Assembly (NCBI GenBank): GCA_964569795.1 | Contig: CAZMVB010000008.1 | Coordinates: 12,303-76,302 of the forward strand | Length of the DNA stretch: 64,000 nucleotides | Source: an uncultured Desulfarculales bacterium | GTDB lineage: Bacteria > Desulfobacterota > Desulfarculia > Desulfarculales > JAHJDS01 | Reading direction: 5' to 3' | Shown here: one piece after another, positions 46,840-61,360 of the stretch | Numbering within the stretch: the stretch's first letter is position 1 | Layout of the letters: each line of letters begins with the position of its first letter | The notes under the pieces: generated by a model | What the model was told of the DNA's origin: nothing | Seen by the model: the letters and a program-made list of their open reading frames with translations, nothing else | Databases searched by the model: none | Position numbers and translations under genes: made by a program

Positions 46840-47927
46840 GGCCCGGCCTCGGCAGAAGTTGACCGGACCGGCGGCTCGTCCAGCAAGTTATAAAAACAGT
46901 CGCGCCGCCGGGCCTCAAAACCGGCCGTCTCGATGAGGTGGATCAGGTCCGCCTCGGACAGACGGAACCTGACACCGGCCGCGGCCACGACGTTTTCCTC
47001 GATCATGGTGCTGCCCAGGTCATTGGCCCCGAAGGCCAGGGCCACCTGGGCGATCTTCGAGCCCTGGGTGACCCAGCTGGCCTGGATATTCGGGACGTTG
47101 TCCAGGACCAGGCGGCTGACGGCTAGGGTCCGCAGGTAATCCACGGCCGTGGCCTTGGCCCGCGGCAGCCGGGTGTTCTCCGGCTGAAAGGGCCAGGGGA
47201 TGAAGGCGGTGAACCCGCCGGTCTCGTCCTGCAGGTCACGGATTCTCATCAGATGCTCGATCCGGTGGGCGTCGGTCTCGACGTGGCCGAACATCATCGT
47301 CGCCGTGGTCTTGAGGCTTAAGGAGTGGGCGACACGCATTACGTCGAGCCACTGATCGGCGGTGCACTTGCCAGGCGAGATCTGACGGCGGACCTCGTCC
47401 ACCAGGATCTCGGCCCCGCCGCCCGGGATGGACCCCAGGCCGGCCTCGATCAGGACCTGGAGCACGGCCTGGATCGACGTCCCCTCGCGTCCGGCCAGCC
47501 AGACGATCTCCGGGGGCGAAAAACCGTGGACGTGGACCCCGTGACGGGCGGTGATCCGTCTCAGGAGTTCCTGGAAATAATTCAGGCCCAGCTCGGGATT
47601 GAGCCCCCCCTGTAATAAAACCTGCCGACCGCCCAGGGCCACGGTCTCCTCGATCTTGCGGTCCAGTTCATCCCAGGACAGGACGTAGCCGTCCGGATCG
47701 CCGGGTTTCTTGTAAAAGGCGCAGAACAGGCAGCCGGACCCGCAGACGTTGGTGTAGTTGATGTTGCGGTCCACCACGTAGGTGACCATCGGCCGGGGAT
47801 GGAGCCGCCAGCGGACCTCGTCGGCCGCGACGGCCAGTTCCAGGATGTCGGCCCGGCGCAGAAGGTCCAGGGCCTCGCCTGCGCCCAGGCGCTTGCCGGC
47901 CGGACGGTCCGGGCCGGTCGCCGGCAT
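46836..47927 (-). CDS. mqnC: Cyclic dehypoxanthinyl futalosine synthase (radical SAM)
   Basis: DRNINYTNVC..GCLFCAF, LLQGG, PGGGAEIL, FIPWPFQP, QASWVTQG. Confidence 0.92.
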   Translation of the reverse strand: MPATGPDRPAGKRLGAGEALDLLRRADILELAVAADEVRWRLHPRPMVTYVVDRNINYTNVCGSGCLFCAFYKKPGDPDGYVLSWDELDRKIEETVALGGRQVLLQGGLNPELGLNYFQELLRRITARHGVHVHGFSPPEIVWLAGREGTSIQAVLQVLIEAGLGSIPGGGAEILVDEVRRQISPGKCTADQWLDVMRVAHSLSLKTTATMMFGHVETDAHRIEHLMRIRDLQDETGGFTAFIPWPFQPENTRLPRAKATAVDYLRTLAVSRLVLDNVPNIQASWVTQGSKIAQVALAFGANDLGSTMIEENVVAAAGVRFRLSEADLIHLIETAGFEARRRDCFYNLLDEPPVRSTSAEAGP

Positions 47928-49021
47928 CAGGCCGCCTCCCGGACGTCGATGGGCCGGTAAAAGGCGTCGCGCTCGACGGGCTCGAAGCCGGCCCGGCGGA
48001 TCATCTCCCGCAGTTTTTCCCGGGGCAATCCCCGGGCGCTCTGGGCCCCGGCCATGTGGCTGATCTTTTCCTCGATGATCGTCCCGTCCAGGTCGTCGGC
48101 CCCGAAGGACAGGGCCACCTGGGCCAGGGGCTCGCCCAGCATGACCCAGTAGGCCTTGATGTGATCGAAGTTGTCCAGCAGCAGCCGGGCCAGGGCGGTG
48201 ACCTTCAGGTCGTCGGCCGCGGTCGGGCCGCGCCGGGAGGCCAGTCGGGTGTTGGCCGGGTGAAAGCTCAGGGGAATGAAGGCCGAGAAGCCGTGGGTCT
48301 CGTCCTGGAGTTCGCGGAGCATCAGGAGATGATCGACCCGCTCCGCATCGGTCTCCAGATGACCGTAGAGCATGGTGGCGTTGGTGGTCAGACCGGCCCG
48401 GTGGGCGGCCCGCATCACCTCCAGCCAGCGCCAGTGGCTGATCTTGCGGGGGAACAGCTTGACCCTGACCCGGGGTGAAAAGACCTCGGCCCCGCCGCCG
48501 GGCATCATCTCCAGGCCGGCCTCCTTCAGGGCGGCCAGGGTCCCCTCCAGTCCCAGTCCGGATATCCGGGCCAGGTGGTCGATCTCCACGGCGGTGAAGG
48601 CCTTGATGGCCGCCCCGGGCCGCAGCCGCTTCAGGAGGCGGATCAGGTCGAGGTAATAGTCAAAGGGCAGAGCCGGGTTCACGCCGCCGACGACGTGGTA
48701 TTCGGTGATCGGTTCGTCCAGGCGGTCCGTCAGGCGGCGTTCGATCTCGTCCAGGCCCAGGGTGAAGGCCCCGTCCCGGCCCTCGTCCCGGGCAAAGGCG
48801 CAGAAGGCGCATTTGTTCTGGCAGACGTTGGTGTAGTTGAGGTGCTGGTTATAGACGAAGAAGACCCGGCGGCCGTGCCGCTGGCGGCGCACGGTATCGG
48901 CCAGGCGGCCGACGGCGACCAGGTCAATGGCGTTGAGGATGGCCAGGCCGTCGTTGCGGTCGAGTCTCTGGTGGTTGTTGACCTTTTCGGCCGCGGTTTG
49001 CAACCCGCTGTTTTTTGTCAA
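47927..49021 (-). CDS. mqnE: Aminofutalosine synthase (radical SAM)
   Basis: NYTNVCQNKCAFCAF, HVVGG, KAFTAVE, TMLYGH, HIKAYW. Confidence 0.92.
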   Translation of the reverse strand: MTKNSGLQTAAEKVNNHQRLDRNDGLAILNAIDLVAVGRLADTVRRQRHGRRVFFVYNQHLNYTNVCQNKCAFCAFARDEGRDGAFTLGLDEIERRLTDRLDEPITEYHVVGGVNPALPFDYYLDLIRLLKRLRPGAAIKAFTAVEIDHLARISGLGLEGTLAALKEAGLEMMPGGGAEVFSPRVRVKLFPRKISHWRWLEVMRAAHRAGLTTNATMLYGHLETDAERVDHLLMLRELQDETHGFSAFIPLSFHPANTRLASRRGPTAADDLKVTALARLLLDNFDHIKAYWVMLGEPLAQVALSFGADDLDGTIIEEKISHMAGAQSARGLPREKLREMIRRAGFEPVERDAFYRPIDVREAA

Positions 49022-49182
49022 GTTTATGACCCTCCGCTCATTTATTATTAGTTGGTATTATTATATTTTTTTGCATTCATAATATGACCCACCGGTCATT
49101 ATATGCCTCATTCCGAGCGGGAACGCAAGTGTTTTGTCCATCGGCCCGGGCCCGGGACGGACGGACGTCGGCAATTTTTTTC

Positions 49183-49211
49183 TTGACACCAGGCTATTCA
49201 GGACTTATAAA
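49183..49211 (+). promoter_or_regulatory. sigma70 promoter upstream of the fusA leader
   Basis: TTGACA-N17-TATAAA. Confidence 0.75.
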
Positions 49212-49239
49212 AGATGATTACGTTTTGGGCGTGGCTGAC

Positions 49240-49399
49240 GCGGCGGGAAGACCGCCGCAGGGTCACCGCGCCCCACGGACGCGGTAACCTGAAAAACACG
49301 GCAACGTACGGCGACCGCCACCCGCGGTCGCCTTACTTTAAGGGCGGTCGAGACCTCGGCCGCCGAGGATCAAGAAGCGGGGTCGCCGGCGCGGCCCCG
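49240..49399 (+). ncRNA. Candidate structured 5' leader RNA (five hairpins) of the fusA paralogue
   Basis: Stems at 49240-49258, 49258-49291, 49310-49332, 49343-49364 and 49378-49399. Confidence 0.45.
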
Positions 49400-49420
49400 T
49401 CCTGATAAGGAAACAAAGAG

Positions 49421-51505
<2,085 letters not shown>

Positions 51506-60884: not shown

Positions 60885-61360
60885 GGGGGGCGCCATTTGG
60901 CGCCCCCCACTTCACGACCAACGCCTGTAACGTACTTTTCTCCTCGTCCGCGCTTACCGCCTCCACTACGTTTCGGCTGCCCCGGGGTGGGCATTGGCTG
61001 TTCTCCGTGCCTTCACGTAGTTCGCTGGACACGTTTGGCCGCTTGTTCTCGCTTCCCGCCATGGGTCAGTGGTTCACCAAACCCTCGTCCGCGCTTCCCG
61101 CCTCCAGGCGCCAGTGGGCGCCTCCTAATTCGCGACCAACGACCGTGCCGGTGGTTGTTCCTCGTCCGCGCCTGCCGGCGCCACTTCGTTGGCGCCTGCC
61201 TCGGGGTGGGCCTTGGCTGTTCTCCGTGCCATGCGGCTGGCTGATGGCCGGGCCTTCATCCTTTGTTAGTGCCGAAAAAATAGGGACTGCCTCCATTTTT
61301 CGTTCTCCGGCCAGACCGCGCCGCCGGGACCATGGAAAAATGGTGGCTGTCCCTATTTTT
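60885..61360. repeat. Mosaic REP-like repeat region
   Basis: Two ~120-nt units (60889-61010, 61107-61230) starting with GGCGCC-N4-GGCGCC, a partial unit at 61083, and a 26-nt inverted pair at 61276-61301/61335-61360. Confidence 0.8.

Follow-up and report, generated by a model that had tools for sequence, protein, structure and literature searches.

The elongation factor G (EF-G) gene fusA in the window, the 64,000-nt stretch of DNA from an uncultured Desulfarculales bacterium that was analyzed here, is the canonical EFG-I gene of its lineage, relocated out of the rpsL-rpsG-fusA-tuf (str) operon. The dosage of EF-G is normally tied to that of the ribosomal proteins through the str operon. In its present position the gene stands behind a near-consensus sigma-70 promoter and a leader of ~203 nt that is predicted to fold into five stable stem-loops. 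This leader is quite probably a genuine selected RNA. Its role can be proposed only tentatively: it is read here as a lineage-specific, probably constitutive attenuator and stability element, and not as a riboswitch.

Identity and relocation of the EF-G gene

In a first-pass annotation of the same DNA, the gene was described as a second, accessory EF-G. It is the main EF-G instead. Three EF-G-like genes are present in the genome and the window copy obtains the top TIGR00484 score (Table 1), ahead of the other two with 888 and 696 bits. In the str operon of this organism, tuf begins ~60 nt after rpsG (MAKKKFERTKPHV) and no fusA lies between the two (G000:C55:1-600). The same can be observed in G001, the other genome of the genus, where rpsG likewise runs directly into tuf (G001:C473); the spacer measures 60–70 nt in the genus. 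The closest homologue of the window gene was also located in 28 relatives that belong to four other families of the class. At 56–64% identity, it always lies directly 3' of rpsG, and tuf then follows in the 27 relatives whose contig reaches far enough.

The phylogeny points the same way. In a maximum-likelihood tree the window protein forms a 100%-supported clade on a long stem, together with P0001, P0002 and the G001 protein. The clade is nested among the str-operon and canonical EF-Gs, in a group with 95% support, and is well separated from the paralogue groups B and C. Because rpsG runs into tuf and the tree groups the gene with the str-operon fusA, it is identified as the relocated canonical EFG-I gene. 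The ATG was fixed as its start owing to an in-frame TAA at 49406-49408. The codon usage of the gene is strongly biased, with a GC3 of 0.94 that corresponds to the 95th percentile in the genome, and the EF-Gs of the clade (window, P0001, P0002 and G001) lack the usual N-terminal extension of ~10 amino acids (window 49421-49450).

P0001 (93% identity) and P0002 (88%), both from JGI, are two more close relatives that were retrieved by a protein search. When metagenome contigs were scanned with a clade-specific back-translated pattern, only an unrelated EF-G-like gene was returned, and a scan of genome contigs gave canonical EF-Gs of ~60% identity among the matches listed.

The two other EF-G paralogues of the genome (G000:C16:23227-25260 and G000:C1:204464-206500) are 52% and 40% identical. 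Both paralogue groups occur throughout the class beside the str-operon copy. Group C carries a divergent G1 motif (GHGGAGKTS/AGAGQTS), typical of EF-G2-like proteins.

EFG-I copies outside the str operon ('nSTR') have been recorded before and were described as additional copies that arose from duplication or transfer (Margus et al. 2011, PMC3150367). The window fusA resembles these in also being away from rpsL-rpsG-tuf. Unlike the nSTR copies (PMC3150367), however, it is the sole member of its lineage in the genome, the str operon itself having lost fusA.

Promoter and predicted fold of the leader

The window fusA is divergent from mqnE (aminofutalosine synthase), from which it is separated by 399 bp. 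This gap can be subdivided into three components: an AT-rich stretch with a conserved palindrome, the promoter, and the leader of ~203 nt with 67% G+C (Table 1). The near-consensus promoter that had been noticed ~210 nt before the ATG is present in the window as well as in the sister genome, where TTTTTTTCTTGACA and the -10 hexamer are kept. From its position, a transcription start near 49218 is predicted. The consensus promoter scan demands a T at position 6 of the -10 hexamer, and for this reason the fusA promoter is missing from its list; the G001 promoter (TTGACA-17-TATATT) was picked up, with 11/12 positions. In the whole own genome, 71 of the 89 sites with a perfect -35 and at least 5/6 of the -10 are located in non-coding DNA, which makes up ~20% of the genome. 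It follows from this concentration that the organism uses such promoters.

Table 1. Coordinates of the mqnE-fusA region in the window, with the predicted leader elements
Feature	Position	Strand	Description
mqnE	47927-49021	-	aminofutalosine synthase
sigma-70 promoter	49176-49211	+	T7 tract (UP-like), -35 TTGACA 49183-49188, 17-nt spacer, -10 TATAAA 49206-49211
hp1	49240-49258	+	GCGGCGG / GAAGA / CCGCCGC, 7 bp, -15.0 kcal/mol, pair probability ~1.0
hp2	49261-49289	+	imperfect 11-bp stem-loop, -15.7 kcal/mol
A-rich single-stranded spacer AACCTGAAAAACACGGCAACGTAC	49287-49309	+	first part of the conserved block; aligns with AACCGGACAAAAAAACCGGCAATCAG of G001
hp3 with T-rich tail TTACTTTAA	49310-49341	+	stem-loop 49310-49332, 9 bp (8 G-C), -18.2 kcal/mol; intrinsic-terminator-like
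hp4	49343-49364	+	9 bp, loop GACC, -16.1 kcal/mol
purine-rich linker GAGGATCAAGAA	49365-49376	+	G001 keeps the purine-rich character and the AGAAGCG end
hp5	49377-49400	+	10 bp including two G-U pairs, loop CGGC, -19.6 kcal/mol
mini-helix	49401-49411	+	CCU (49401-49403) / GAUA / AGG (49408-49410); covers Shine-Dalgarno AAGGA 49407-49411
fusA	49421-51505	+	EFG-I type elongation factor G, 694 aa; TIGR00484 1009 bits (cut-off 659)

Two further promoters in the genome carry an upstream T-tract like that of fusA, in the form ATTTTTTTC-TTGACA (G000:C32:29239-29268 and C33:26515-26544). Both are located ~50 nt 5' of a gene for a 94-aa protein and may form a common class of strong promoters with that of fusA. 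The AT-rich region upstream of mqnE contains a perfect 6-4-6 palindrome, ATGACC-CACC-GGTCAT, and an imperfect copy, ATGACC-CTCC-GCTCAT, that adjoins the mqnE start (window 49084-49099 and 49026-49041). The counterpart in G001 reads ATGACC-CGTC-GGTCAT. The palindrome is a candidate operator of the menaquinone (futalosine) operon, perhaps for the TetR gene that is embedded in that cluster.

The space between promoter and fusA is filled by five independent stem-loops, hp1 to hp5, with a minimum free energy of -108.2 kcal/mol on the sense strand. The prediction thus returns the five consecutive GC stems that had been described, with 7–11 bp and an imperfect hp2, and the last of them does end just before the ribosome-binding site. 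A GCGGTCG-like motif is found in three of the hairpin arms. Downstream of hp5, a conserved CCU is predicted to pair with the core of the Shine-Dalgarno (SD) sequence. The resulting mini-helix is weak and comprises only 3 bp. The stretch GTCCT.ATAAGG is identical in both genomes, and the SD core is predicted in silico to be ~90% paired here and 72–82% paired in G001.

The fold is more stable than expected from its composition. A z score of -4.63 was obtained for the sense strand, where 0 of 200 dinucleotide shuffles folded as well, and one of -3.17 for the antisense strand. Upstream non-coding segments of 200 nt were taken from the same genome by means of a crude GC3-based gene call; among these 1033 segments, the fusA leader is 31st once G+C is corrected for (top 3%). 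Its fold is unusual but not unique in its genome. Together with the sense-strand bias and the conservation in the sister genome, the z score supports the earlier description of a genuine, long multi-hairpin 5' leader.

An origin from a repeat family was looked for and dismissed. In a BLAST search against the own genome of 4.4 Mb, the leader is single-copy and only chance matches of 15–31 nt appear. A covariance model, searched for dispersed (REP- or MITE-like) copies in the own genome, finds only the leader itself and the next match has an E value of 1.7. The leader also differs from the repeat family that is located at 60885-61240. The remark that no known riboswitch could be recognized was borne out by Rfam 15, for which the window gives no match at the gathering threshold; at E<=10 only chance matches appear, namely snoR126 (17.9 bits, cut-off 39) and Hammerhead_II (17.8 bits, cut-off 37). 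No Rfam matches were obtained for the sister locus and the rpsG-fusA spacers of relatives either.

Several other candidate features of the leader were considered and rejected. A 63-codon open reading frame (49214-49405) might have encoded a leader peptide, but it is not gene-like in its composition (GC1/2/3 of 0.62/0.67/0.75), begins 5' of the predicted transcription start and has no counterpart in the sister genome. In both genomes, the first nucleotides of the leader are predicted to form a closing helix with the SD-AUG spacer, yet 36/150 and 15/150 shuffled 5' segments pair equally well, as do swapped segments. As judged by eye, an SRL-like GAGA loop in hp4 cannot form and is not present in the sister genome. 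Finally, GGA motifs of the CsrA type are no more frequent than the composition predicts, and their positions are not conserved by eye.

Conservation in the sister genome and the class

The locus of G001, which belongs to the same genus and has an EF-G of ~80% identity, shows the same arrangement: a divergent mqnE, the palindrome, the T-tract, the promoter and a leader of ~228 nt. The comparison of leaders comprises these two sequences, those of P0001 and P0002 not being included. From ~49285 to the ATG, the 3' ~140 nt of the leader with hp3, hp4, hp5 and the SD are 85% identical between the window and G001. Essentially no alignment is possible for the leader's 5' half and for the DNA upstream of the promoter. 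There, hp1 has no alignable counterpart, G001 holds a different hairpin at the position of hp2, and its 5' half also bears hairpins.

Within the conserved block, the changes are distributed unevenly. Only 9/56 stem columns differ between the window and G001, in comparison to 24/50 columns in loops and linkers (Fisher p = 6.5e-4), so that stems have changed about three times less often. For the 31 pairs of hp3, hp4, hp5 and the SD mini-helix, 96.8% of the cells in the two genomes can pair. Seven pairs vary. One of them shows a compensatory change, four have a single substitution after which a G-U or Watson-Crick pair still forms, and two are broken. In the hp3 stem, G001 has two changes, both to G-U. 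In hp4, one G-C has been replaced by C-G (compensatory), one pair has changed to G-U and one closing pair is lost. The 3' arm of hp5 is identical; in this hairpin a C-G stands in place of one U-G and one pair no longer forms. The pair-preserving changes to G-U, taken as predicted pairs, fit a sense RNA only. In the shuffle control for covariation, 263 of 500 shuffles reach the observed value; with only two leader sequences compared, covariation is statistically weak and this control carries little information.

Beyond the genus, the element was searched for with R1, a covariance model of the hp3-hp5 block. A search through 95 genomes of this class gave no credible match. The top matches outside the genus (E values of 1.6e-4 to 0.02 per genome) correspond to hairpins and terminators of a generic kind, none of which is located upstream of fusA, and no R1-related element was found before any other gene, neither in the own genome nor in the class. 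As R1 matches nothing credible elsewhere in the class, the element is restricted to the lineage in which fusA moved.

Homology to the rpsG-fusA spacers of relatives was likewise considered and rejected: these are hairpin-rich but unrelated in sequence, and R1 gives no match. In some sister genera, the rpsG-fusA intercistronic spacer measures 130–235 nt, is G+C-rich and contains multiple hairpins (types of ~230 nt or ~138 nt). In these spacers, the conserved 3' motif TTGAAAGGnnTTTAGGGTTAT precedes a GTG start; they possibly represent an uncatalogued intercistronic element. Within the order, fusA may repeatedly be preceded by structured RNA.

Possible function of the leader and comparison with known systems

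The tentative reading as an attenuator and stability element comprises the following steps. Having left the rpsL-rpsG-fusA-tuf operon, fusA is now placed divergently beside mqnE and has a strong sigma-70 promoter of its own. The leader is taken as a string of five independent and very stable stem-loops and not as a switch. The hp3 stem-loop and its U-rich tail may serve as a leaky intrinsic terminator or pause that throttles the near-consensus promoter. The hairpins hp4 and hp5, which are placed against the SD, would together with the conserved CCU that pairs the SD core set the stability of the mRNA and the rate of translation initiation. Collectively, hp3, hp4, hp5 and the CCU may replace the dosage control that was lost when fusA left the ribosomal-protein operon. 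Such control would most likely be constitutive or exerted by general factors (NusA/NusG, RNases), with no specific ligand. The conserved stems, the drifting loops and the lack of a ligand pocket, a leader peptide or an rRNA mimic are the grounds for reading the leader as a constitutive or general-factor governor; any effect on mRNA stability or translation is predicted from sequence.

The first-pass annotation stated that the leader contains no U-tract. In fact, hp3 is followed by the T-rich tail TTACTTTAAG, and the two form the top terminator-like match in a 20-kb scan. Within the leader, which has 12% T, no other internal window is T-rich. G001 keeps the hp3 stem with the tail TTTGTTGTCC, and an A-rich stretch precedes the stem in both genomes. 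What makes hp3 terminator-like is that, in both genomes, this strongest hairpin comes just before the sole T-rich stretch inside the leader. Several cross-matches of R1 in relatives are hairpin and T-tract terminators after a stop codon or a tRNA-like 3' end, which fits the terminator-like shape of the hp3-hp5 block. Like an intrinsic terminator, hp3 combines a G+C-rich stem-loop with a U-rich tract. In the window, the tract is weak, with 5 U in 10 and only two U adjoining the stem (UUACUUUAA). Transcripts may end at hp3; as the U-tail is poor, termination may also be negligible.

No antiterminator or other sensing device was found around hp3: no competing structure is populated and the pair probability of hp3 is 0.99–1.0. 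A conserved upstream open reading frame is also missing in the two genomes, which show no conservation with each other upstream of hp3. Several points speak against the attenuator reading. The stems may be conserved for another reason, for example a bound protein, and templated mutation in palindromes could mimic pair-preserving change without selection. The shortness of the SD mini-helix, the poor tail of hp3 and the weak covariation from two leaders have to be added to these.

The leader could also be a largely neutral by-product, i.e. a long hairpin-rich spacer in a genome with 67% G+C that is possibly structured only against Rho or RNases. This explanation is unlikely. In its favour, the genome has ~30 other upstream regions whose fold, corrected for GC, is at least as good. 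The free turnover of the 5' half, the different and variable hairpin-rich spacers before fusA in sister genera and the weak covariation statistics are also compatible with it. A neutral spacer does not readily account for the 3' 140 nt, which are as conserved as coding sequence while the flanking non-coding DNA is not, nor for stems that evolve three times more slowly than loops. The T-rich tail and the A-rich spacer are, moreover, present in both genomes.

The constraint on the stems beside the SD would also be expected of a feedback sensor, in which hp3-hp4-hp5 binds a protein (EF-G, a ribosomal protein or another RNA-binding regulator) or the ribosome and thereby couples fusA to the translational status. 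The relocation took away the S7-linked control, the GCGGTCG-like motif recurs in three arms and autogenous leaders are the rule for translation genes. A sensor is nevertheless judged rather unlikely. The loops and junctions, which are the parts usually read by proteins, are the least conserved, and no related element precedes other genes in the own genome or the class. Mimicry of rRNA was not found either: the best local scores against the own 23S rRNA and the 5' half of the 16S rRNA, sense and antisense, lie within the shuffled distribution (the 3' half of the 16S rRNA, not in the assembly, is excluded from this comparison). A more specific version, with hp3-hp4-hp5 as an autogenous operator that newly evolved after fusA had left the str operon and is bound by EF-G or a ribosomal or stalk protein and feeds back on read-through and translation, is improbable. 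If true, it would be the first dedicated feedback leader for EF-G.

The first-pass annotation had also suggested a co-transcribed small RNA. Such an RNA would extend over ~115–125 nt from the promoter to the hp3 terminator, with fusA expressed only by read-through, and the strong promoter followed by the terminator-like hp3 in both genomes speaks for it. Such a small RNA is quite improbable, since the sequence upstream of hp3 has not been kept in the sister genome; its body (hp1 and hp2) hence holds no conserved seed. Furthermore, no other fusA promoter was recognized by eye in the ~90 nt after hp3, and there is no Rfam match.

Least credible of all is a riboswitch-like switch through an alternative pairing of hp3 and hp4. 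The octamers that were proposed to pair, CGACCGCC (49312-49319) and GGCGGTCG (49343-49350), are indeed perfectly complementary, and the analogous arms can pair in G001 too. This complementarity is a trivial consequence of the similar palindromic arms of hp3 and hp4. Forcing the pairing costs +10.4 kcal/mol, which leaves an equilibrium probability of ~5e-8 here and of <=6e-9 in G001, and hp3 folds before the hp4 arm has been transcribed. A riboswitch typically has two folds of comparable energy and conserved unpaired or junction nucleotides that form the ligand pocket. Here, the alternative fold is less stable by the amount given, the loops and linkers are the most variable parts, and only one compensatory pair is seen. 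Conserved stems with variable loops and linkers argue against a ligand-binding aptamer, and no Rfam family matches.

The attenuator and stability element, tentative as it is, therefore remains the preferred reading. As it stands, the leader is a narrow, genus-level element known from two genomes. What is rebuilt after the str link breaks can be seen in this lineage: a strong stand-alone promoter, together with a leader that is long, selected and rich in hairpins and that includes a terminator-like element. Should the leader be regulatory, it would be a cis-element of a core translation factor that is missing from the catalogues, and an example of how regulation is replaced once an operon has broken up. 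Of practical value are the correction of the gene to the main EF-G and the finding that the proposed switch is not energetically credible.

Three known systems invite comparison. The operons of ribosomal proteins and translation factors often carry autoregulatory leaders, such as the S7 operator that E. coli has in its str operon. Like these, the fusA leader is a structured RNA directly 5' of a core translation gene that ends at the SD, and like many of them it is lineage-specific. Unlike these, it has no rRNA mimicry or known binding protein, and its conserved parts are the stems instead of the loops and junctions. The 5' UTR hairpins of the ompA type are 5' stem-loops that stabilize mRNA. 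The fusA leader differs from them in having five hairpins over 200 nt, not one 5'-terminal stem, and in that its first predicted ~20 nt are outside any stable hairpin. In both cases a highly expressed gene carries stable hairpins in its 5' UTR, along with A/U-rich single-stranded linkers.

The third system is formed by the intrinsic-terminator attenuators (premature terminators) in 5' leaders, which are surveyed in PMC2965389. In comparison to such attenuators, the fusA leader has no recognizable antiterminator, leader peptide, T-box, aptamer or protein-binding repeat, its U-tract is weak and termination is predicted only. What it has in common with them is a hairpin rich in G+C that lies well before the start codon and has a U-rich tract behind it, as well as a strong promoter, a long untranslated leader and, as proposed here, expression by read-through.
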